Source: Candidatus Falkowbacteria bacterium RIFOXYC2_FULL_36_12 | GTDB taxonomy: Bacteria > Patescibacteriota > Patescibacteriia > UBA11705 | Assembly (NCBI GenBank): GCA_001778235.1 | Contig: MFGJ01000008.1 | Span: forward strand, 129,148-193,147 | DNA length: 64,000 nt | Direction: 5' to 3' | Part shown: piece by piece, positions 2,408 through 50,572 of the stretch | How the letters are laid out: each line of letters opens with the position of its first letter | Position numbering within the stretch: position 1 is the stretch's first letter | Made by a program: the position numbers and the translations under genes | The notes under the pieces: model-generated | The model's input: the letters and a program-made list of their open reading frames with translations, nothing else | Databases searched by the model: none | What the model was told of the DNA's origin: nothing

Positions 2408-3601
2408 CTATTTTATTTTTACAAAATGCCTCTTACCCTTTTGGACAACATCACCGCTTTTAACTTCAAACTCAACCGAATTTATAATTTCATCATTTAT
2501 TTTAACTGCTTTTTGCTCTACCATTCTCTTTGCTTCAGATTTTGAAATTACAAGGCCTGTCTCAATCAAAACATCTACAATATTAAAATTTGAAACTGTT
2601 TTTTCCTCAATTTCATCTGGCCGTTCCTTCTTCTGAAACATTTGGACAAAATTTTCTTCAGCCTTATCAGCCCTATCTTCATCAAAATAAAACTCAACAA
2701 TTTCCTTGGCTAACTCAACTTTCAAATCTCTTGGATTTTCACCTTGTTTCAATCTTTCTTCAAATAATTTTAATTTAACCGATTCAACCATTGTACAAAG
2801 TTCAAACCCCGGAATAATCATGCCATCTGTCCAGCTCATTACCTTGCCAAACATATCATCAGGACTATCAGCCAAAGTAATCATGTTTCCTTCAGATTTT
2901 CCCATTTTTATTCCTGATGGATCTGTCAATAATTTATTAGTCAAAACAAATTTTTCCTTCATTCCAAGCGATTTCATCAAATCCCGACCAGCAAGCATAT
3001 TAAAAGTCTGATCATTACCACCGACTTCACCATCAACATCCATTGCAACTGAATCATAACCTTGCATCAGCGGATACAAAAATTCATGTAAACTAATCGG
3101 TTTACCCTCTTTCATTCTTTTCTGGTACATATCCCTCTCAAGAAACTGCTGGACCGTAAAATTTGAAGCCAAATCAATCACCTGCCGAAAATCAAGTTTA
3201 TCTAACCATTTATGATTAAACTTTATTTCAACTTTATTCTTACCAGTGAAATCAAGTATTTTTTCAGCTTGTTTTTTATAATTTTTAGCATTTATCAATA
3301 CTTGTTCTCGAGTCAAAGGCTTTCTAGTTGCAGATTTGTCAGTCGGGTCACCAATCATTGCAGTAAAACTACCAATTAAAATTATAACCTGATGCCCAAG
3401 CTGTTGAAACTCGCGAAGCTTCATAAAATTTATCGCGTGTCCCAAATGCAAATCAGTTCCGGTCGGGTCAATACCTAAATATAGAGTTAATCTTTGCCCA
3501 GACTTTAATCTTTTCTCTAAAAATTCTCTGCTCGGATAAATATTCTGCACGCCTCGAGTTAATAACTTTTCTATTTTCTGGGAATCTGTATCAATTTTCA
3601 T
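2408..3601 (-). CDS. tyrS: tyrosyl-tRNA synthetase
   Basis: HLGH (HIGH) and KMGKS (KMSKS) motifs with a C-terminal S4-like domain. The ATG at 3601 was verified. Confidence 0.9.
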   Translation of the reverse strand: MKIDTDSQKIEKLLTRGVQNIYPSREFLEKRLKSGQRLTLYLGIDPTGTDLHLGHAINFMKLREFQQLGHQVIILIGSFTAMIGDPTDKSATRKPLTREQVLINAKNYKKQAEKILDFTGKNKVEIKFNHKWLDKLDFRQVIDLASNFTVQQFLERDMYQKRMKEGKPISLHEFLYPLMQGYDSVAMDVDGEVGGNDQTFNMLAGRDLMKSLGMKEKFVLTNKLLTDPSGIKMGKSEGNMITLADSPDDMFGKVMSWTDGMIIPGFELCTMVESVKLKLFEERLKQGENPRDLKVELAKEIVEFYFDEDRADKAEENFVQMFQKKERPDEIEEKTVSNFNIVDVLIETGLVISKSEAKRMVEQKAVKINDEIINSVEFEVKSGDVVQKGKRHFVKIK

Positions 3602-6600: not shown

Positions 6601-6816
6601 CATTCTTTTGTATCGAATCATCAAATCTTCAATCGCCAACATTGCCGCATGTCCTAAATGCAAAGAACCTGTCACATTTGGTGGTGGCAGTACAATTGAA
6701 AAAGCCTTACCTTTATTATTAATTGTATCAGGATTAAAAAATTTCTTTTCTTCCCAATTATTGTAAATTTTTTCCTCAAAATCTTTTGGGCAATAAGCTT
6801 TTGGCAATTCTTTCAT
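3613..6816 (-). CDS. valS: valyl-tRNA synthetase with an internal histidine-phosphatase (PGAM-like) domain insertion
   Basis: PPPNVTGSLHLGHA, WCISRQIWFGHQIP, DTWFSSGLW and KMSKS motifs are present. The protein is 1067 aa with about 195 extra residues between the PVWY and DTLDTWFSS blocks. Confidence 0.9.
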   Translation of the reverse strand: MKELPKAYCPKDFEEKIYNNWEEKKFFNPDTINNKGKAFSIVLPPPNVTGSLHLGHAAMLAIEDLMIRYKRMQGFDTLWLPGFDHAAIATQNVVEKKIFNDEGKTRHDLGREAFLNKVEDFVSQSKKTITNQTRKMGSSVDWSRETYTLDDVRSMAVRKVFKMMYDDGLVIRGNRIVNWCPRCHTTLADDEIEYKETKSKLYWLKYGPFVLATTRPETKLGDTAVAVNPKDKRYKSMIGKKYMIPGVLGEFEITVVADEAVDPEFGTGAVKVTPAHSLVDYEIAERNELPIKQIIDEDGRMMANCGKYVGMTSLEARESIVKDMKAMGLIEKIDDDYDNKISVCYRCKTVIEPLISDQWFIDVNKKITKKGNKYFSNGASLKQVAIKVVKDKEINIIPERFEKVYFHWMENLHNWCISRQIWFGHQIPVWYDKDLKQPIISDAKPTEIVLQRHGEAKTNEKGVLSSDIDNLENGLTGTGKKQIKIMAEKLKNEKFDIIYASDFSRTKETVGILNKELKLKVIFDERLREVGVGEFEGKSVGDFVHFREADFEAWRNDSPKGIESFLHQKKRVFSCLTDILKKYSGKKVLVVSHGDVLRMAQGMHKNLTDEEIFKLGYPETGENIKIKLTNVESPNGLENIYQDSDTLDTWFSSGLWTFSTLLPEDWNGKKFEGKDMKRFHPTTVMETGYDILFFWVARMILMTTYVKGEVPFENVYLHGLVRDKNGDKMSKSKPETAIDPLQAGDKYGFDAVRLSLLIGNTAGNDIRLYDEKIEGYRNFVNKLWNISRYILMTLNPEKRDSKFELNKNVSLSDRWILSKFNTLIQDVTKMLDEYNFSGAGDLLKEFTWNDLADWYLEIAKVENDKDVVLIHILKNLLKMWHPFMPFVTEAIWQNLGSEQELMVSKFPQFDKKMIDKEGVKEFEQLQVVIGKIRNMRSEYKIDPAKKIKIQIKAGERLQSQFGIIMSLARLEKIELVIEKPEKSATAIVSDVEIYLPLAELLDIDKEIERLKSEIDNSKKYVLGLEKKLGNEEFMKNAPELVVAEEQRKFNEAKEKIEKLQNQLEELE

Positions 6817-30331: not shown

Positions 30332-30370
30332 AAGTACTTTTTATTATTTATATTTCTGGGTTTATCTCTC

Positions 30371-30461
30371 TTACCTTGCTTTACTTGCTGTACTCGCTGT
30401 ACTCGCTGTACTCGCTGTACTCGCTGTACTCGCTGTACTCGCTGTTCCCACTTTTCCCACC
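30371..30461. repeat. Intergenic 9-bp tandem repeat tract (6 perfect GTACTCGCT units flanked by degenerate units)
   Basis: Direct reading of 30390..30443 with degenerate flanks ttaccttgct, ttacttgct and gttcccact, tttcccacc. Same family as the argS tract. Confidence 0.8.
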
Positions 30462-30534
30462 AATCATACACTACTTGATTTATTTATTCAAATATGCTAT
30501 TCTATTGTTACTTGATGAATAACTTGAAAAAACT

Positions 30535-35222: not shown

Positions 35223-35362
35223 ATTTTTTATTTACCAATAAACCTCTTCTTGCTTATACTGTGACAATCTCAAAGGGATCTAAAAAGTTTAATAACATCT
35301 TATCGTTTACGCAAATGTTTTTTTACAATCTCCAGATAGAATCCCAATTTTTTCAATCGTTC

Positions 35363-37915
35363 TTAAATAATTTTTGCGTTTGGATAATTTTTACTTAAAT
35401 CTTCTCTTTGTTTTATTGACAAATTCTTACAATAAATTTTCCCCTGGAAAGCAACCGGCAGTTTCAAACCTTCAGCCGTCTTTAATCCTGACAAATCAAT
35501 ATCACCGCCAATGTTCTCGGGCAGTTTCAAACCATCAGCTGTCGTTAATCCTGACAACACAAGATCCCCACCAATGCTCTCGGGCAATTTCAATCCTTCA
35601 GCTGTCGTTAATCCTGACAACACAAAATCCCCACCAATGCTCTCGGGCAGTTTCAAGCCTTCGACTGTCATTAATCCGTTCAAAAAAAGATCACTGCCAA
35701 TGCTCTCGGGCAATTTCAATCCTTCAGCTGTCGTTAATCCTGACAAATAAAGCTTACCGCCAATACTCTCGGGCAGTTTCAAGCCTTCAGCTGTCGTTAA
35801 TCCTGACAACTCAAGATCCCTGCCAATGTTCTCGGGCAGTTTCAAGCCTTTAGCCGTCGTTAATCCTGACAAATCAAGATCCCTGCCAATGTTCTCGGGC
35901 AGATTCAAGCCTTTAGCCGTCGTTAATTTCATCAAAGACAAAGAGCCACCAATAATCTCGGGCAATTTCAATCCTTCAGCTGTTGTTAAATCCTGCAACT
36001 CAAGATTACCACCAATACACTCTGGCATTATCAATCCTTTAGCCGTCGTTAATCCTGATAAATTAAGAAGTCCGCCAATGCTCTCGGGTAGTTTCAAACC
36101 ATCAGCCGTCTTTAATCCACGCAATGCAAGAGAGCCACCAATACTCTTGGGCAGTTCCAAGCCTTTAGCGGTTGTTAATCCTGACAAATAAAGATTACCG
36201 CCAATACTCTCGGGTAGTTTCAAGCCTTCAGCTGTCTCTAATCCTGACAAATAAAGCTTACCGCCAATACTCTCGGGCAGATTCAAGCCTTCAGCCGTCG
36301 TTAATCCTGACAAATCAAGATTACCACCAATAATCTTGGGCAATTTCAATCCTTCAGCCGTCGTTAATCCTGACAAATCAATATCCCTGCCAATGTTCTC
36401 GGGCAATTTCAATCCTTCAGCTGTCGTTAATCCTGACAAAGAAAGATTACCATAATGAAATTTAATTTCACCACTCACAGCTTCCTCATTTGTCAAGCTT
36501 ATCTTATCCTTGGGAAAACCTGTCACCACCACCAAATCAGCCCTTATATCCTTTCGGTTACTCTTGATTTCTTCCAAACGCGGATCAGCCTCATAACCAA
36601 ATCCTTTAATTTTACCGTCAAACTCATACAAAAATCTCAAATCACTCTTTGCCAGTTCTTGCCCTTGTCTATTTCTCTCCCAAACATCTGTCAATTGCTC
36701 CATATCTGCAGTCTTCTGCTTGTACTCATCTCCTTCCTTGCCAAATTCATCCATTTTCTTTTCCACCACTGGACCAATATATGGATCCAGATTCTGATCA
36801 GTCGCTATACCTCGGACTTCAGCGATTTTTTCTTTCCCCTCCATGCGTATCGCAATCCTAGGAATCACAGCTTCACCATCTTCATTATAGGAATAATAGA
36901 CATAAAAATCTCCTCCTGCCAACTGTTTTCTGGCCGTCTCAATATCAGCTGTGCACCATTCTAGTGGATAACCCTCAAGGCTTTTTACCAACTCATCCGG
37001 TTTTGATTTCTGCGGGAAAATTTTCCACTCTCCTTTAATTTCCTCCAGTCCTTCAGTCGCGTATTCAGGAATTTCCAGTAAAAATTGTGCGTAAAGTTTG
37101 GCAAAGTTTTCCTTCGATAATAATTTAATAAATTCATTTTCCTTTAATTTCTTACTGTCATTTTTTATTTGCAATTTCAACAATTCTTCCTCTCTTTGTT
37201 CTTTGGGCTTTTGCTTTTCTCTCGCCACCCTTTCTTTTTCTTCCAAATAACCAATCATCACTCCGATTGTTTTTGCCAAGGCCCGAGAGTTCAAGAGTGG
37301 AAAGGTGTTTGTAGTTGAACCAGTTCTTCGCTGAAACTGCGCCTTGACGCTTCCATTTATGTCTTCTTTTTTCACCAACTTGCCCATTTTCAGCATTGAA
37401 GTAAACGCCCAATACTTGGCCCACATCGGATACTGGGCATCGTCTGAAGTCAGGTAATTGAACCAAGTTTCTAAACTTTTCGCTTGGTTGTTTCTCACCA
37501 CCACCAACGACTGCTCCCTCATTTCTACCGGAAAAATATAGTTGACAATCTGCTCATCTGACTCATCTCTGATTACTCTTTTTTCCACCCCATTTTGTTC
37601 CAAATCTCCACCATATCCCTGACGAATCATTATTTCCGCCTGGTTATTCCAATATCCTTGAGGTATGTCATCAAGTGTTAGTGTCACATATCTCCGGTAA
37701 TAATATTGTTTTAGTCGTTCCATCACTTTCGGATCATCTCTGTGCCCCAAGTGGGTTCGCTCCAGCACCTTCATCCAATCCGACAACTTTTCCGCTGGCT
37801 TTTGCGTAGTCTGCTCACCACGCCGTTTTTTCCTATCCTGTTCATGCATCGCCGGATCAGACAAATGAAGCTCTGTATCTTTTTGATGTAAAAATTTTTC
37901 TCCAAAATTTGTCAT
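35363..37915 (-). CDS. large repeat protein: about 480-aa unknown N-terminal domain plus about 22 tandem 20-aa Leu-rich (LRR-like) repeats
   Basis: C-terminal 20-aa repeats, consensus LDLSGLTTAEGLKLPESIGG; no signal peptide seen. The start overlaps the trmH stop (ATGA). Confidence 0.6.
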   Translation of the reverse strand: MTNFGEKFLHQKDTELHLSDPAMHEQDRKKRRGEQTTQKPAEKLSDWMKVLERTHLGHRDDPKVMERLKQYYYRRYVTLTLDDIPQGYWNNQAEIMIRQGYGGDLEQNGVEKRVIRDESDEQIVNYIFPVEMREQSLVVVRNNQAKSLETWFNYLTSDDAQYPMWAKYWAFTSMLKMGKLVKKEDINGSVKAQFQRRTGSTTNTFPLLNSRALAKTIGVMIGYLEEKERVAREKQKPKEQREEELLKLQIKNDSKKLKENEFIKLLSKENFAKLYAQFLLEIPEYATEGLEEIKGEWKIFPQKSKPDELVKSLEGYPLEWCTADIETARKQLAGGDFYVYYSYNEDGEAVIPRIAIRMEGKEKIAEVRGIATDQNLDPYIGPVVEKKMDEFGKEGDEYKQKTADMEQLTDVWERNRQGQELAKSDLRFLYEFDGKIKGFGYEADPRLEEIKSNRKDIRADLVVVTGFPKDKISLTNEEAVSGEIKFHYGNLSLSGLTTAEGLKLPENIGRDIDLSGLTTAEGLKLPKIIGGNLDLSGLTTAEGLNLPESIGGKLYLSGLETAEGLKLPESIGGNLYLSGLTTAKGLELPKSIGGSLALRGLKTADGLKLPESIGGLLNLSGLTTAKGLIMPECIGGNLELQDLTTAEGLKLPEIIGGSLSLMKLTTAKGLNLPENIGRDLDLSGLTTAKGLKLPENIGRDLELSGLTTAEGLKLPESIGGKLYLSGLTTAEGLKLPESIGSDLFLNGLMTVEGLKLPESIGGDFVLSGLTTAEGLKLPESIGGDLVLSGLTTADGLKLPENIGGDIDLSGLKTAEGLKLPVAFQGKIYCKNLSIKQREDLSKNYPNAKII
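35400..36450. repeat. Near-identical 60-bp tandem repeats (coding, within the LRR-like gene)
   Basis: Repeating ...ctctcgggcagtttcaagccttcagctgtcgttaatcctgacaa... units, GC-richer than the surroundings. Confidence 0.8.
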
Positions 37916-44316: not shown

Positions 44317-46899
44317 ATGCAAGACAAAATAATCATCACTGGCGCCAAAGAGCACAATCTAAAAAATATAAACCTAGAAATCCCCAGAAATAAAATGATA
44401 GTTTTCACAGGTTTGTCTGGTTCTGGCAAATCCAGTCTAGCTTTTGATACTATTTTTGCCGAAGGCCAAAGACGCTATATTGAAAGTCTGTCAGCTTATG
44501 CTAGACAATTTCTTGGTGGACTGCAAAAACCCAATGTTGATGAAATTACCGGACTTTCACCCGCCATTTCCATTGACCAAAAAGCTCACAGCGCCAATCC
44601 CCGATCAACCGTTGCTACCATTACTGAAATTTATGACTATCTCCGAATTTTATTTGCCAAAATCGGTACACCCTATTGCCCAATTTGCCAAACAAAATTG
44701 GATAAAACCACTACTCAAGAAATGACCGAAACAATTTTAACGAAAATAACCAAATTTAAAAATAATCAAGACAATGAATTAAAAATTTTCGCTCCAATTG
44801 TTCGCGGACGCAAAGGAGAATATCATCAATTACTCTATGATATTTATAATTCTGGATTTCTCGAAGCCCGAATTGATAACAAAATCTACAAACTAAAAAA
44901 TCGCATTGATCTTTCCCGCTACCAAAAACACACCATTGAAATTGTTATTGATAAAGCCTGGGTTGATGAATTTTTACTTCAAGAATTCAAAAAAGGCACA
45001 GAGCAACGACTGGCTGAAGCCATAGAAAAAGCCGTTGATCTGTCCAATGGACTTTGCACTGTTATTTATCCTGATTTATCTGAAGAAACTTTTTCTACTG
45101 AATTTACTTGCCCCAAAGACGGTTATAGCTTTCCTGAAATCGAACCTCGTCTTTTTAGTTTCAACAGTCCCTATGGCTACTGTGAATTTTGCACTGGACT
45201 TGGAACTAAAGAATTGTTCAGTACTGAACCATGCCCTGTCTGTGAGGGCAAAAGATTAAACAACAATGCTCTTCATGTCAAAATTGACAATAAAAATATT
45301 TGGCAGATTACCAATCTATCAGTCAAAGATGCCAATCAATTTTTCAACCAACTAAAACAAAAACTAACCAACCAACAGAACGAAATTGCTGAATTAGTTA
45401 TCAATGAAATAAACAATCGCCTGCAATTTATGTTCGATGTTGGTCTACATTATTTAACTCTAAATAGAAAATCAGGTACTCTCTCCGGTGGCGAAGCCCA
45501 GAGAATTAGATTAGCATCACAAGTTGGACAACGATTAGTCGGAGCACTTTATGTTCTTGATGAACCAACAATTGGTCTGCATCAAAAAGACAACGAACAG
45601 CTAGTCAATACCCTGCGCAATCTTTGTGATATTGGCAATACTATTATTGTTGTTGAACATGATGAAGACACAATTCTTTCTAGTGATTGGGTGGTTGATA
45701 TTGGCCCTGGTGCTGGTAAACATGGCGGTGAAATAGTTTTTTCAGGACCTTTAGACAATTTATTGAATAGTAAAAAAATTCTTGAACAAGTATCCTTAAA
45801 CTGCCAGACTGCGGGTCAAGCAAAAAATTCTTTAACCGGTAAATATCTCCGATCTGAAGAAACCATTCCCACACCAAAACAATACCGAAAAGTCGACAAA
45901 AAAACTCCGACAATAAAAATTATCGGAGCATCACAGCACAATCTTAAAAACATTGATGTTGAAATTCCTCTACGCCGGCTTGTTTGTCTTACTGGTGTTT
46001 CTGGCTCTGGAAAATCAACACTAATGAATGATATTCTCTATCGCGCAGTTCAAAATAAATTATTTCGCACCAGAAAAAAAGTCGGCGAGCATAAATCAAT
46101 CAGCGGAACAGAAACTTTAGACAAAATAATTCGCATTGATCAAGGTCCGATTGGCCGTTCACCTCGTTCAAACCCAGCAACCTATACCTGTTCATGGACA
46201 TTTATTCGTGAATTATATTCAGCCACACCTGAAGCCAAAATCAGAGGCTACAAACCAGGTAGATTTAGTTTCAATCGTCCAGGTGGCCGTTGTGAAGCCT
46301 GTGAAGGTCGTGGTGTAAAAGAAATTGAAATGCATTTTCTACCTAGTGTAGAAGTTATTTGTGAAATTTGCCACGGCAAAAGATTTAACAAAGAAACCCT
46401 ACAAGTTCACTACAAAGGCAAGGATATTTCTGAAGTTTTAGACATGACAATTGAAGACGCTGAAATTTTTTTCCGCGATATCCCAATTATTTATTCAAAA
46501 TTAAAAATATTAAATGAAGTTGGCTTGGATTATTTAACACTTGGCCAATCAGCTAAAACTCTTTCCGGAGGAGAAGCTCAAAGAACAAAACTAAGCAAAG
46601 AACTTGCCCGAAAAAGTACAACCCAAACACTTTATCTCTTGGATGAACCAACAACTGGCCTGCATTATGCTGATGTAAAAAAACTACTTGAAGTACTTCA
46701 GAGACTGACCAGCCAAGGCAACACCGTCATGATTATCGAACACAATCTTGATGTTATTAAAAATGCTGACTGGGTAATTGATCTCGGACCAGGCGGAGGC
46801 GAAGAAGGCGGTCATCTTGTTGCCATGGGAACACCAGAAGACATCGCCAGAAAGTCAGCTAGTTTTACCGGAAAATATCTCAAACCATATCTAAAATAA
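44317..46899 (+). CDS. uvrA: excinuclease ABC subunit A (compact, 860 aa)
   Basis: Two ABC modules ([10 protein letters not shown] / [18 protein letters not shown] x2) and zinc-finger cysteines. Confidence 0.95.
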
Positions 46900-46995: not shown

Positions 46996-47024
46996 TTGAC
47001 ATTTTTATCAAAATATGCTATAAT
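46996..47024 (+). promoter_or_regulatory. Consensus sigma70 promoter TTGACA-17-TATAAT driving the GC-rich ORF
   Basis: Exact hexamers at 46996..47001 and 47019..47024. GAGGAG SD 6 nt before the ATG at 47085. Confidence 0.55.
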
Positions 47025-47084
47025 TCATTGTTAGGCCTGTACCTTCAATGGTCCAATCTGGACCCGAAACGAGAGGAGACTCCC

Positions 47085-47780
47085 ATGGGAATCACCCTGC
47101 TCCAGCGCATCATCAACCCCAGAGCCAAGGGGACAGTGGATGATCCGGAAGAAATTTGGCCAGAGAAGTTCAACAACAACCCCAGAGCACTGATCGCCAT
47201 CTGGAACTTCATTCCGAAAGTCAACCATGACTGCCCGCTGTGGCAGGCGGTCATCGCCATCTTCAAGGAACTCGAAAAGTTCGACATTGAAGACAACTAC
47301 TGCCCCACCATCGAGGTCTACAACGGTCAGGACCAGAAACCCCAAGTCCTGATCATGGTGGACCGCCCTATCACCACCGGCTACATCGCCAAAACCCAGG
47401 TCTACGGTCCGGCGGATGAACTGATCGCGATCTACAACTCTCTCATCATCTTCACCATCGACATACACAGGAGTCGCTGCTGGCGTAGCCGGTCATGGAT
47501 CACTGCCTGGCTCTGCGCCCTCGGCTTCACAGAGGACGAGGCACACATGCTGGCTTCGGACAGAGATTTCCACCTGAACACCACCGCCTGCTACTTCCTC
47601 ACCCGCCTCGGCCTCCAACTCGGCCACGATGTCGAGGAATGCCTCGAACTTGCGAAGCAAATCAAACGCGAAGCCGATGTGGACGCGATCATCGAACTAC
47701 TGCTCGAAGACCGCTCACTCGGCCTCGACGACGCCGTCGCCCTGGCCTGTCCGATCCCCCGCCCGATCACCCACACCTGA
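47085..47780 (+). CDS. GC-rich hypothetical protein of evident foreign origin (231 aa)
   Basis: Strong G/C third-position bias in this frame only (atc acc ctg ctc cag cgc ...). The flanking DNA is AT-rich. No recognisable motif. Confidence 0.6.
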   Translation: MGITLLQRIINPRAKGTVDDPEEIWPEKFNNNPRALIAIWNFIPKVNHDCPLWQAVIAIFKELEKFDIEDNYCPTIEVYNGQDQKPQVLIMVDRPITTGYIAKTQVYGPADELIAIYNSLIIFTIDIHRSRCWRSRSWITAWLCALGFTEDEAHMLASDRDFHLNTTACYFLTRLGLQLGHDVEECLELAKQIKREADVDAIIELLLEDRSLGLDDAVALACPIPRPITHT

Positions 47781-47931
47781 AATCCACCAACAACAAGTAA
47801 ACAACAACAACAAACCGACTCATAAAAGTGAGCGGTTTTCAGTTTAAATTTTATTCAGTTATAATATAATTATCAATTAAATTTTATCCTTATGCTAAAA
47901 ATTGACTGGACAAATAAAAATTTATTCAACA

Positions 47932-48330
47932 CCACAAACACGATAAGCCTCGGGGCTTGTCTGCCGTAATCTTGATGAAGGCAGGTCTGGGGGGATTCTT
48001 AACATCAAAAAGCACGCCATAGACTTGATCAAGGGTACCACGCAGAGCGTAATCAATCACTTAATCTCAAAAAAACTTGCTTTAACAAAACTTATCACCT
48101 ACTTTATATATTAAATTCCACAAACACGGCAAGCATCGGGTCTTGCCTGCCGTAATCTTGATGAAGGCAGGTCTGGGTGAACAAGCGCGTCATCAAAACC
48201 ACGAACTTGATCAAAACAATTCGCATTTGTTCACCCAGTGGTTTTTGCATACTTTTTGCCATCAAAAAGTATGACGCGAAGCGTAATCAATCACTTATTC
48301 TCAAAATAACTTACTTTAGCAAAACAACAA
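47932..48330 (+). repeat. Two tandem copies (about 186-nt period) of a structured element with conserved 5' and 3' modules and a variable middle
   Basis: Copies start at 47932 and 48118 (ccacaaacacg...). Both carry ctgccgtaatcttgatgaaggcaggtctggg and gcgtaatcaatcactta-tctcaaaa-aactt-cttta-caaaac. Confidence 0.6.
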
Positions 48331-48465
48331 CTTACATTTAGATTACACTAGTGATCACTACATTCATTTGTTTCGCCTTTAAACCTATATATCAGCTGTC
48401 GCTGTTGGTTTATGTTTAAAACAAAAAAATCTTCACTTAGTTTAGCAAAGATAAATTAGTTTTGA

Positions 48466-48741: not shown

Positions 48742-49998
48742 ATGTCAACAGTAAACTCAAAAATAAAACAATTACTGAAAAAACTCCCTTCTACACCCGG
48801 AATATACTTTTTTTATAATAGCCAAAAACAAATAATCTATATTGGCAAAGCCACCAACCTTCATACTCGAGTAAAAAGCTATTTTCAAGCTAAAAAAACT
48901 GATCGTCCAATTGAAACCATGATTTCTAAAATTAATAATATAAAATTCCTCCAAACCGACTCTGTGCTTGAAGCAATTATATTAGAAGCCCAACAGATAA
49001 AAAAACTGCAACCGATTTATAATGTCTTAGGCAAAGACAATAAAAGCTGGATCTATATTGTAATCACCAATCACCAATATCCACGAGTTGAAACAATCAG
49101 AGAACATGAGCTAAATCAATTATCTGAAATAACCAAGAAAAAAGTCTACAACAAAATCTTTGGTCCATTTCCAAATTTACGAACAAAAGACACCATAAGA
49201 ATTCTGCAAAAACTTTTCTCTATTTCCTTTTGTCATCCTGATCAGAAAAAAGCCTGTTTTTATCGTCAACTAAATCAATGCTTGGGAGTTTGCACCAATG
49301 AAATTTCCGACAAGGACTATAAAAGTAAAGTTATTAATCCTTTAATTCAATTTTTATCTGGAAAAAAATCTTCAGTCATTCAAAAATTGAAAAAACAAAT
49401 GTTTCAAACTTCAAAAGCTGAAAATTTCGAAGAAGCTGGTCGAATACGCAACCAAATCAATAACTTAAAACATATCCAGGATGTGACGCTAATAGATGAA
49501 AAATTTTTCCAATCATATCGTGCAGACTCCAATCAACATTTATTTAAAATTGAAGGTTATGATATTTCCAATCTAGGATCAACTGGAAAAGTTGGCAGTC
49601 TTGTTGTCTTCGATCAATCAGGTCCGATCAAATCTGAATATAAAAAATTCAAAATCAAAACTGTCAGCGGTCAAAGCGATGTTGATTGTCTAGCTGAAAT
49701 ATTTGAACGCCGATTAAAACATCAAAATTGGACTTTGCCAGATTATTTTTTGGTTGATGGTGGCAAACCACAATTAAACAAAATTAAAAAAATCCTTATT
49801 TCTAAGAACATTGATATTCCTATTATTGGAATTGCCAAGGGTCAAGAACGAAAAAAAAATGAATTCCATCTCACCACTAGAAATCAATCCATTCTCGATT
49901 TCATAAAGCAAAACAGCAAACTTTTGATCCAAGTCAGAGATGAAGCCCACAGATTTGCTATCAGCTACCAACGCAAATTAAGAAAAATAAAGAAATAA
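48742..49998 (+). CDS. uvrC: excinuclease ABC subunit C (short form; GIY-YIG and RNaseH-like endonuclease domains)
   Basis: GIYFFYNSQKQIIYIGKATNLHTRVKSYF GIY-YIG motif. The ATG at 48742 is preferred over the upstream track start. Confidence 0.8.
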   Translation: MSTVNSKIKQLLKKLPSTPGIYFFYNSQKQIIYIGKATNLHTRVKSYFQAKKTDRPIETMISKINNIKFLQTDSVLEAIILEAQQIKKLQPIYNVLGKDNKSWIYIVITNHQYPRVETIREHELNQLSEITKKKVYNKIFGPFPNLRTKDTIRILQKLFSISFCHPDQKKACFYRQLNQCLGVCTNEISDKDYKSKVINPLIQFLSGKKSSVIQKLKKQMFQTSKAENFEEAGRIRNQINNLKHIQDVTLIDEKFFQSYRADSNQHLFKIEGYDISNLGSTGKVGSLVVFDQSGPIKSEYKKFKIKTVSGQSDVDCLAEIFERRLKHQNWTLPDYFLVDGGKPQLNKIKKILISKNIDIPIIGIAKGQERKKNEFHLTTRNQSILDFIKQNSKLLIQVRDEAHRFAISYQRKLRKIKK

Positions 49999-50012
49999 CC
50001 ACATATGGTTAT
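49995..50012. terminator. Bidirectional hairpin (ataacca-cata-tggttat) between convergent uvrC and the transposase gene
   Basis: 7-bp stem overlapping both stop codons, followed by ttcttttg. Confidence 0.4.
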
Positions 50013-50572
50013 TTCTTTTGATTTATTGGATTATGTTTTATATAAATTCTAATTTGGTCTAATGATTCATCGTTGCGAATTATGTGATCATAATATTGTT
50101 TCTGCCAAAATTGGACACCAATGGAATTATTCAATTTATTAATTTTTCGTGCGGAAAATGTTTTGAACCCGCGGATTATCTCACACAATTTGTATTTTTT
50201 ATCATAAACATTATTTGTAGGTGACGGTTTGAAACCGTCACCTACCGTTTCATCATCAATTAATTGCGGGTTCAAACCGTCACCTATCGATTCATCATCA
50301 ATCAATTGAATAATGCCATGCACATGGTCGGGCATAATAATAAATTCGTCCAAAACACAATTTTTATAATGATTTGGTAGATCATACCAACAATCTCTAA
50401 CAATTTTTCCTAATTCATTTAATAACATTTCATTATTTTCCACCGTACCTAGACAACAAAACCTGTTCTTTACACAAATTGTTATAAAATAAAAACCAGG
50501 ACTCGAATAATCCCAATTTTTTAATCTAAAAATCCCCTTATATTTCCCCCTATATAATTCCTTCTCATTCAT
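50009..50572 (-). CDS. IS200/IS605-family Y1 HUH transposase homologue (RAYT-like)
   Basis: HUH motif HVHGII and catalytic Tyr region QKQYYDHIIRN. Size and layout match TnpA(IS200)/RAYT. Confidence 0.7.
   Translation of the reverse strand: MNEKELYRGKYKGIFRLKNWDYSSPGFYFITICVKNRFCCLGTVENNEMLLNELGKIVRDCWYDLPNHYKNCVLDEFIIMPDHVHGIIQLIDDESIGDGLNPQLIDDETVGDGFKPSPTNNVYDKKYKLCEIIRGFKTFSARKINKLNNSIGVQFWQKQYYDHIIRNDESLDQIRIYIKHNPINQKK
50217..50245. repeat. REP-like palindrome GTAGGTGACGG-TTTGAAA-CCGTCACCTAC inside the transposase ORF, plus a 42-nt tandem duplication (50228..50311)
   Basis: 11-bp perfect stem starting with GTAG. The adjacent 42-nt units encode IDDESIGDGLNPQL / IDDETVGDGFKPSP in frame. 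Confidence 0.6.

Follow-up and report, generated by a model that had tools for sequence, protein, structure and literature searches.

Two adjacent structured units between uvrA and uvrC are members of a dispersed mosaic hairpin repeat in a Candidatus Falkowbacteria genome

Introduction

Repetitive extragenic palindromes (REPs), known from Proteobacteria and other phyla, consist of a hairpin with an unpaired terminal tetranucleotide and frequent G.T pairs; they form sub-families with complementary changes, gather in clusters and occasionally lie within genes, and those of the Escherichia coli type are built from an outer stem, unpaired nucleotides and an inner stem (PMC3733652). Cleavage by TnpA_REP, the RayT Y1 HUH enzyme, is guided by the tetranucleotide of the 5′ foot, while other Y1 classes use feet such as CnGA (PMC6006769). 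Here, we analysed a 64-kb stretch of DNA (the window) of Candidatus Falkowbacteria, a small bacterium from groundwater. Within it, the region between uvrA (44317–46899, +) and uvrC (48742–49998, +) houses two similar structured units side by side. These units are part of a dispersed, mosaic hairpin repeat. We think it probable that they are adjacent members of an extragenic family in this genome that resembles REPs and bacterial interspersed mosaic elements (BIMEs).

Results and Discussion

Organization of the two repeat units

From uvrA to uvrC, the region contains a sigma-70 promoter, a GC-rich open reading frame (ORF), a bulged terminator hairpin (47814–47840), the two units and a convergent 68-aa ORF (Table 1). 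The original prediction had described two direct copies at this place, and a repeat search of the window recovered them. The 5′ modules (47920–47991 and 48106–48177, 72 nt) are 88% identical and the 3′ modules (48035–48091 and 48269–48325, 57 nt) 86% identical, while the middles differ by a 52-nt insertion in copy 2; over the whole MAFFT alignment, the column identity is 79%. The 16-nt and 18-nt cores of the modules occur twice each in the window, where 0.05 chance matches would be expected for the 3′ core. Each unit is assembled as a mosaic of a 5′ box CC(CC)ACnAACAYG, hairpin 1, hairpin 2, a long-range stem, a U-run/A-run hairpin, optional sibling hairpins and the 3′ module, and the tail behind unit 2 ends in a weak hairpin, CAGC-UGUC-GCUG (48393–48404), followed by a U-rich run.

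All of the predicted hairpins were found. The covariation claimed for hairpin 1 holds for one pair, which is truly compensatory between the units (A-U to G-C), but the neighbouring pair changed on one side only (U.G to C-G). In unit 1, the 3′ arm of hairpin 1 provides the CUUG foot (47956–47959) of hairpin 2. Hairpin 2, CUGCC-14 nt-GGCAG, is present in both copies as described, and so is the U-run/A-run hairpin in copy 2. The long-range stem of copy 2 also exists, with 12 bp instead of the 10 bp claimed (48173–48184 paired with 48227–48238); GUCUGGGG opens it, and the arms of unit 2 read GGGUGAACAA and UUGUUCACCC. A match to the integration host factor (IHF) consensus at 48051–48063 in the 3′ module of unit 1 is weak evidence in DNA of this AT content. 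Some BIMEs include an IHF site; here the IHF-type match WATCAANNNNTTR is present in both 3′ modules, and its pattern occurs 21 times in the window compared with 12 expected. Since the consensus is common in such AT-rich DNA, the likeness to an IHF site was downgraded.

Table 1. Features of the repeat array and its candidate partner gene in the window
Feature	Position	Strand	Basis
Repeat unit 1 (5′ module, short middle, 3′ module)	47920..48117	+	Direct-repeat search and MAFFT alignment
Hairpin 1 of unit 1 (GAUAAGCC-UCGG-GGCUUGUC)	47942..47961	+	Sequence, minimum free energy fold
Core hairpin 2 of unit 1 (CUGCC / GUA-AU-CUUG-AU-GAA / GGCAG)	47961..47984	+	Exact 18-mer CCGTAATCTTGATGAAGG, family, covariation of outer stem
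3′ module of unit 1 (GCGUAAUCAAUCACUUAAUCUCAAAAAAACUUGCUUUAACAAAAC)	48040..48091	+	Direct repeat and core match
Repeat unit 2 (5′ and 3′ modules of unit 1; middle with 52-nt insertion)	48106..48345	+	Direct-repeat search and alignment
Hairpin 1 of unit 2 (GGCAAG..CUUGCC), with CUUG foot at 48142–48145	48128..48147	+	Sequence, fold
Core hairpin 2 of unit 2 (CCUGCC-14 nt-GGCAGG)	48146..48171	+	26-mer identical to hairpin of a Cyclobacteriaceae metagenome-assembled genome
Long-range stem of unit 2 (CUGGGUGAACAA...UUGUUCACCCAG, 12 bp), variable insert inside	48173..48238	+	Fold
U-run/A-run hairpin (CAUACUUUUU-GCCAUC-AAAAAGUAUG)	48248..48273	+	Sequence, paralogue comparison
3′ module of unit 2	48274..48325	+	Direct repeat and core match
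Tail shared with paralogous array L042	48326..48428	+	blastn collinearity and sequence
RayT-class Y1 HUH tyrosine transposase homologue, candidate trans-acting partner	50009..50572	−	Pfam, NCBIfam, motifs

Paralogous copies in the same genome

The search for further copies was successful. Hairpin 2, the core hairpin, occurs in at least seven exact copies at at least five unrelated loci of one Falkowbacteria genome, in tandem, single and solo forms; this census is a lower bound, and all copy numbers from the collection scans are likewise to be read as "at least". The whole 5′ module of the window was found at L016 (three copies at two loci), L042 (an array) and L075 (a single unit). Because the proteins encoded at L016, L042 and L075 exactly match those of Candidatus Falkowbacteria RIFOXYD2_FULL_35_9, which we take to be the organism of the window, these loci are paralogues in the same genome, and the protein look-ups ruled out that they are orthologues in other species. 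Therefore, the conservation of the 3′ module, the tail and the weak terminator reflects paralogy and not selection across species.

Both the layout and the surroundings of the copies change from locus to locus. The window and the interval from a DUF378 gene to nif3 each carry a tandem pair, a solo hairpin pair follows ileS, an array adjoins rplT, and a single unit is located elsewhere. The flanking genes (uvrA/uvrC, DUF378/Nif3, ileS, rplT, K+ transporter) are different each time; one copy, L016c, is a solo hairpin fragment. By blastn, positions 48046–48428 of the window are collinear with positions 3069–2640 of the rplT-side array L042, including the tail and the weak hairpin with its U-rich run. 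The paralogous units are mosaic, with different middles, sibling hairpins and GC palindromes. At the place of the long-range stem, the arms are wholly different among paralogues, GGGGUUUGC/GCAAACCCC in L016b and GGGGGCUUU/AAAGCCCCC in L075, and self-complementary every time. The U-run/A-run hairpin of the window is a shrunken form of a paralogue module that carries the GC palindrome GCCUGCCUACC..GGUAGGCAGGC.

Each of the four paralogous Falkowbacteria loci has a convergent gene pointing at the 3′ end of the unit; these genes are unrelated among the loci, and a co-oriented downstream gene is present at none of the four. This arrangement contradicts the proposal that the copies form a cis-regulatory leader of uvrC. 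Such a leader, or more generally a regulator of the uvrA-uvrC repair genes, would account for the position of the array between these two genes, for the 9 nt in the 3′ module of unit 1 that are identical to the rrn BoxA core, and for the 26-nt hairpin, identical to that of unit 2, located 143 nt downstream of uvrA and in the same orientation in a Cyclobacteriaceae metagenome-assembled genome (MAG). However, about 400 nt, the convergent 68-aa ORF with its own promoter and a perfect promoter region belonging to uvrC itself intervene, the BoxA-like string is lost in copy 2, and the paralogues of the same genome lie beside unrelated genes and never upstream of a co-oriented one. In addition, uvrA is found at no other hairpin-bearing locus, and its adjacency to the hairpin in both the window and the MAG may be a coincidence. 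We consider a regulatory role for uvrA or uvrC extremely improbable.

The paralogues also bear on the suggestion that the copies are the termini of an inserted element. The units lie directly downstream of the GC-rich ORF, which has a perfect promoter, no homologue and a foreign codon usage (GC content at third codon positions (GC3) of 0.78 vs 0.27 in the host; 56% C at third positions), and with about 190 nt they have the size of bridge RNAs. They could be the termini or attachment sites of a mobile element with which this ORF arrived, or serve the ORF as guide RNAs (bridge RNA, omega RNA or of the tandem interspaced guide RNA (TIGR) type). This explanation is hardly credible, as both copies are on one side of the ORF, tblastn showed that four other loci of the genome carry the repeat without the ORF, and searches of Pfam, NCBIfam and PHROG revealed no recombinase, Nop domain or RuvC domain in the ORF. 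Moreover, TIGR arrays alternate repeats of 8–12 nt with dual spacers of 9 nt beside a Nop-domain Tas protein (PMC12045711). With units of 186–240 nt and no Nop-domain protein present, a TIGR-Tas array was rejected. A type III toxin-antitoxin RNA array, in which 34–45-nt repeats precede an endoribonuclease toxin gene, was rejected as well: the unit measures about 190 nt, no co-oriented ORF follows, and the neighbouring ORFs match no family.

A core hairpin family shared across bacteria

Beyond the Falkowbacteria genome, only hairpin 2 is shared. This core hairpin spans about 31–36 nt and comprises an unpaired 5′ foot CTTG/CCTG, a variable outer stem of 6 bp ending in CC/GG, a symmetric 3×3 purine internal loop (5′-G(U/A)A / 5′-GAA), an inner stem of 2–3 bp and a loop of 3–4 nt. 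At positions −8 to −5, the foot is composed of C/T (0.91), T (0.66), T/G (0.87) and G (0.60). Among 185,579 species genomes, the exact 22-mer of hairpin 2 has a single match, in the Cyclobacteriaceae MAG mentioned above. The 18-mer given in Table 1 is present on at least 93 metagenome contigs of 33–59% GC, about one quarter of its matches being coding or chance (e.g., 'LHQDYG' in pgi), and 47 of the 74 distinct flank combinations have a yTTG/CCTG foot together with complementary flanks. Exact protein look-ups anchored the hairpin in Candidatus Nealsonbacteria and Candidatus Binatia, and the MAG match in Cyclobacteriaceae. On the same contigs, 120 sibling hairpins with matching stems were counted, compared with 4–12 in shuffled sequences. 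In these siblings, the inner stem and loop are exchanged as whole alternatives (AU-CUUG-AU, GC-UUUA-GC, GU-UUCA-AC, GC-CUUG-GC and GCU-UCA-AGC). Since the family was collected by searching for that exact 18-mer and the sibling loops show that the inner part varies, the invariance over 18 nt is partly an artefact.

The structure-preserving substitutions suggested by the two copies proved convincing in a larger alignment, so that both homologues and covariation were seen. In 40 distinct copies of hairpin 2, 93.1% of the outer-stem cells are paired (86.2 ± 0.8% after shuffling; 23–50% in slid controls), and all four variable pairs of the outer stem change on both sides. Cells with a double change number 26 compared with 7.0 ± 3.0, and none of 500 shuffles reached this value. 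Across 49 distinct stems, 22 G.U pairs are opposed by 6 A.C pairs, and therefore only the strand shown is selected to fold.

The structured novel repeat is real. Rfam 15 gave no match over the array even at E values up to 10, the best score being 15.8 bits (snR49); at gathering and permissive thresholds, nothing was obtained in the window or on 25 loci, and no match covered the hairpins in 20 related loci. Neither Rfam nor the published REP catalogues (GTAG, CGTC and CnGA feet) contain the core hairpin, and a literature search for the sequence itself returned nothing. With blastn, the whole array and the 36-nt hairpin gave only chance-level matches to phage and plasmid collections, and a scan of viral contigs yielded one match, within a coding region.

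In the Cyclobacteriaceae MAG (JAGTVG010000044.1, positions 1100–1460 of the locus), the 26-nt hairpin is flanked by heptamer repeats of the GGAGACG type, and strings resembling other modules of the window (AAUCAAUCAUU, AAUCUUGAUACGCGG and UAUUCAAAAACU) are present as well.

Folding and the possibility of an RNA product

Compared with shuffled sequences, unit 2 folds markedly better (z = −4.15 on the + strand and −3.87 on the − strand), and unit 1 does not (z = −1.25 and −0.59 on the two strands). The original prediction took the structure as a sign of functional RNA rather than junk duplication. An RNA role is possible, but it is not established, given the mixed orientation, the modular gain and loss, and the REP/BIME-type behaviour of the units.

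In its most developed form, the RNA explanation regards the units as multi-copy genes of structured small RNAs (sRNAs) on the + strand, which would be transcribed from a promoter of their own up to the weak CAGC-UGUC-GCUG/U-rich hairpin, with the conserved hairpin as a module for a widely conserved RNA-binding protein. The selection for folding on one strand with tolerance of G.U pairs, together with the strong covariation, is compatible with this idea, although G.T pairs fit folded single-stranded DNA (ssDNA) equally well. The 3×3 tandem-purine loop and the tetraloops of the CUUG/UUUA type resemble a protein-binding motif of RNA, and the fold of unit 2 exceeds that of shuffles; against this stands the absence of any Rfam family match. 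Promoter-like sites occur at 47836–47870 (+), right after the terminator of the upstream ORF, and the convergent genes faced by the 3′ ends at all four Falkowbacteria loci fit an independent transcription unit. However, the promoter and terminator matches are weak and as frequent in shuffled sequences, and the 3′ module and tail are conserved only among the paralogues of one genome, hence showing no sign of selection. The mixed orientation to flanking genes, often antisense to tightly packed co-directional ones, the antisense copy inside a coding region, the mosaic units and the solo hairpin fragment L016c are also difficult to reconcile with sRNA genes. Tandem sibling sRNAs (Qrr, PrrF1/2, OmrA/B) are likewise adjacent, similar, structured intergenic units of about 200 nt. 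In contrast, the present units are mosaic, lie at several unrelated loci, share the hairpin module alone with other phyla and have no conserved promoter or terminator. We judge sRNA genes an unlikely explanation, yet one to be kept in mind.

Transcription from the opposite side was considered as well, with the array as the 3′ untranslated region or terminator region of the minus-strand 68-aa ORF (48672–48466). Each copy would then end in a hairpin followed by GUGUUUGUGG. A perfect sigma-70 promoter (48748–48720, −) drives the ORF toward the array, hairpin 1 of either copy coincides with one of two terminator-like sites on this strand, and at all four paralogous loci the convergent gene leads into the element in reverse complement. 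Nevertheless, two terminator-like sites compare with 1.9 expected from shuffles, and on this strand the U.G pairs, in the two copies as in the family, turn into A.C mismatches and the purine internal loop becomes pyrimidine; the convergent genes, as noted above, are unrelated. This makes a minus-strand terminator very unlikely.

Several likenesses noted by eye were rejected because they concern one copy only or have the wrong geometry: rrn BoxA, the sacB/bgl ribonucleic antiterminator (RAT), the fdhF selenocysteine insertion sequence (SECIS) loop, group II intron domain 5, CsrA sites, integron attC core sites and k-turn or sarcin-ricin motifs.

Orientation, gain and loss of hairpin units

Across the loci collected, hairpins and genes stand in no consistent relation. 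Upstream genes share the strand of the hairpin in 21 cases and lie on the other strand in 20; downstream genes share it in 19 cases and oppose it in 31. Where co-directional genes are tightly packed, the hairpin is often antisense to them. The 224 ORFs neighbouring the hairpins show no enrichment of any protein family.

Units consisting of a tag and the hairpin are gained or lost as blocks. At L086, one intergenic element occurs with and without a unit of 31–32 nt, L067 has an extra unit that is missing at the corresponding site of L015, and L037, L018 and L032 contain arrays of the 31-nt unit with differing loops. Within cysS of L106 (9520–9560), a sibling hairpin (CCGAAGCTTTAGCGAAGG, CCCG/CGGG stem) lies antisense and in frame, encoding about 12 additional residues in the linker ahead of the anticodon-binding domain.

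The locus L086 has its relatives in Candidatus Nealsonbacteria. Between 3300 and 5400, consecutive small genes (NUDIX, HAD) are each preceded by a common intergenic element of about 100 nt, consisting of a terminator-like hairpin, a T-run and then GGTAAGATA right before the start codon; the 31-nt hairpin insert is present in some copies only. At L065 (about 6700–6800) and L093 (about 2420–2520), the hairpin lies beside a tRNA-Met gene and is bracketed by a direct duplication of 12–13 nt of the tRNA 5′ end (AGCTACGGGCCC), reminiscent of the footprint of an insertion or of a partly duplicated tRNA.

On contigs with several copies, the copies invariably share one orientation. Of 38 loci, 29 have the hairpin on the C-rich strand and 26 have it opposite to the majority coding strand, and a residual skew of about −0.06 is left once the coding strand is allowed for. 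In the window, the GC skew on the + strand is −0.27 overall and −0.13 over + strand genes; being strong and kept over these genes, it indicates a large replication-associated skew in this genome of the candidate phyla radiation (CPR). All copies examined from the Falkowbacteria genome sit on the C-rich strand.

A RayT-like gene and its possible link to the hairpins

The window also encodes a RayT-like protein (Table 1), about 1.7–1.9 kb from the array. It matches Pfam Y1_Tnp with E = 8.6e-9, its best NCBIfam match is REP_Tyr_transpos with 61 bits, under the cutoff of 80, and the HVH and YIKHN (YxxxN) motifs can be read in its translation. The family shows 45–57% identity across Patescibacteria, Planctomycetes, Chloroflexota and Margulisbacteria. 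Around nine independent homologues, 176 kb were scanned for hairpins, and four sibling hairpins were located in their vicinity, at distances of 97 nt (L110, with an inverted partner), 466 nt (L106), 3.7 kb and 4.5 kb. The proximity of RayT genes and hairpins is suggestive, not conclusive. The first co-occurrences noted (L017/L044 and L054/L060) were discarded because the 18-mer lay inside coding sequence (pgi 'LHQDYG' and a 554-aa ORF).

Some further features of these genes were recorded. In CPR genomes, RayT-like genes reside in housekeeping operons beside genes for DNA processing, in the orders dprA-RayT-topA, cysS-RayT-comEC and xerC-like-RayT-obg (L104, L106 and L108); in the window, the order is hydrolase-hydrolase-RayT. 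The gene of the window contains an internal tandem duplication of 42 nt (50225–50308), which yields a repeated 14-aa insert after the HUH motif. At L116 (5390–7221), a diversity-generating retroelement (bAvd and reverse transcriptase) lies 3–4 kb from the RayT homologue, with a sibling hairpin in an ORF beside it.

Comparison with REP, BIME and related systems

The resemblance to REPs and BIMEs is extensive. The core hairpin is imperfect and short, within the 20–40 nt of REPs, with an unpaired conserved tetranucleotide as 5′ foot; G.T/G.U pairs are tolerated on one strand; and the succession of outer stem, unpaired nucleotides, inner stem and 3–4-nt loop is that of the GTAG-3 REPs of E. coli. 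Its copies are dispersed and extragenic, they form sub-families with complementary stem changes and mosaic clusters, they are occasionally intragenic, and a RayT-class gene is present in the same genome. We favour the REP/BIME-like interpretation since the hairpin with its foot, the G.T bias, the mosaic clusters, the mixed orientation, the gain and loss of units and the intragenic copies fit the published definition. The REPIN-RAYT system of Pseudomonas and Enterobacteria, in which REPs come as inverted doublets (REPINs), also offers a parallel, as a single-copy Y1 HUH gene (YxxxN) stands alongside a population of hairpin repeats, with an inverted pair directly downstream at L110. In contrast to that system, where REPs flank their cognate RayT gene within about 1 kb, the RayT-like genes here lie in housekeeping operons and are mostly unflanked by repeats. 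Compared with classical REPs, the conserved symmetric G(U/A)A/GAA internal loop is different, and the hosts are CPR and other uncultured phyla.

Several observations speak against a REP/BIME-like nature. The foot is CTTG/CCTG and not GTAG or CGTC; GTAG or GTAA does occur, but within the outer stem, where it forms the 5′ side of the internal loop. The number of copies in the genome, at least seven, is far lower than for classical REPs, and REPs do not usually have a loop allele that stays the same over 18 nt in different phyla, although this is in part the search artefact discussed above. The tandems are direct and head-to-tail, with no inverted REPIN doublets in the window and the L110 pair as the sole inverted one. 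The RayT-like gene of the window lies inside a hydrolase operon with no hairpin directly adjoining it. At five of the nine RayT homologue loci, including all non-CPR ones, no hairpin occurs within 10 kb, and 535 kb of loci with hairpins contained no RayT gene, except at loci with a coding or chance match; a single-copy trans-acting gene would likewise predict this last result. Finally, IS608 has a documented preference for the lagging-strand template, and the hairpin, lying on the C-rich strand, shows the reverse.

Strand-specific hairpins of the ssDNA type with an adjacent guide tetranucleotide are also found, in subterminal position, in IS200/IS605 insertion sequences and their miniature derivatives, palindrome-associated transposable elements (PATEs), and the strings CTTGAT/TTGAT are reminiscent of nick or target sites of HUH enzymes. 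The units here, however, have no left-end/right-end pair, no tnpA/tnpB inside and no defined boundaries. An IS200/IS605 element or a PATE was rejected, with no bounded element, no tnpB and the Y1 gene 1.7 kb away in an operon.

For the REP/BIME-like family, we infer a mobilisation by RayT on ssDNA. The hairpin would act as folded ssDNA to be recognised, nicked and rejoined by an enzyme of the RayT Y1 HUH type, with the 5′ foot in the role that the guide tetranucleotide has in canonical REPs. In this way, units would be multiplied or kept in the course of replication. Units that are transcribed, as between the two convergent transcription units of the window, would simply form a stable 3′-end hairpin.

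A broader proposal, which we put forward tentatively and consider doubtful, is that the CYTG-footed G(U/A)A/GAA hairpin represents a third superfamily of REP-like tags, the cognate single-stranded nucleic-acid ligand of the widespread RayT-like Y1 HUH proteins in CPR and other uncultured phyla, or alternatively a cross-phylum RNA module for a universal RNA-binding protein. If the RayT-ligand version were true, it would explain why Patescibacteria, Binatia and Bacteroidota share one loop allele without a difference over 18 nt and would give these 'domesticated transposases' a testable substrate.

Neighbouring genes and other features of the window

The GC-rich ORF upstream of the array encodes 231 aa, with an ATG at 47085, an end at 47780 and a strong ribosome-binding site; from promoter to terminator, the gene spans 46996–47840, and its promoter is a perfect TTGACA-17-TATAAT sigma-70 site (46996–47024). 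No homologue was detected among 5.8 billion proteins, nor any match in Pfam, NCBIfam or PHROG. In L007, an assembly of the same organism, a run of N replaces 47418–47520 inside this ORF. The 68-aa ORF that converges on the array is hydrophilic and has a GGAGGG ribosome-binding site, its promoter has a perfect extended −10 consensus, and it matches no family and was found in this organism alone.

Two further repeats were observed in the window. A tandem array of a 63-nt repeat (35331–36512), with at least 15 copies of 62–84% identity, is presumably a repetitive protein-coding region, and two runs of a 9-nt repeat (CTGTACTCG) at 1457–1559 and 30352–30481 lie 29 kb apart.

Conclusions

In CPR bacteria, whose genomes are tiny and gene-dense, one would not expect to find repeated, structured non-coding DNA amounting to several hundred bases at multiple loci. 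For annotation, the locus carries a warning, as local covariation alone is insufficient to call tandem structured units sRNAs or leaders. If the hairpin is a substrate of RayT-like enzymes, it would provide a biochemical handle on domesticated HUH transposases in uncultured bacteria and would extend REP biology well beyond Proteobacteria.

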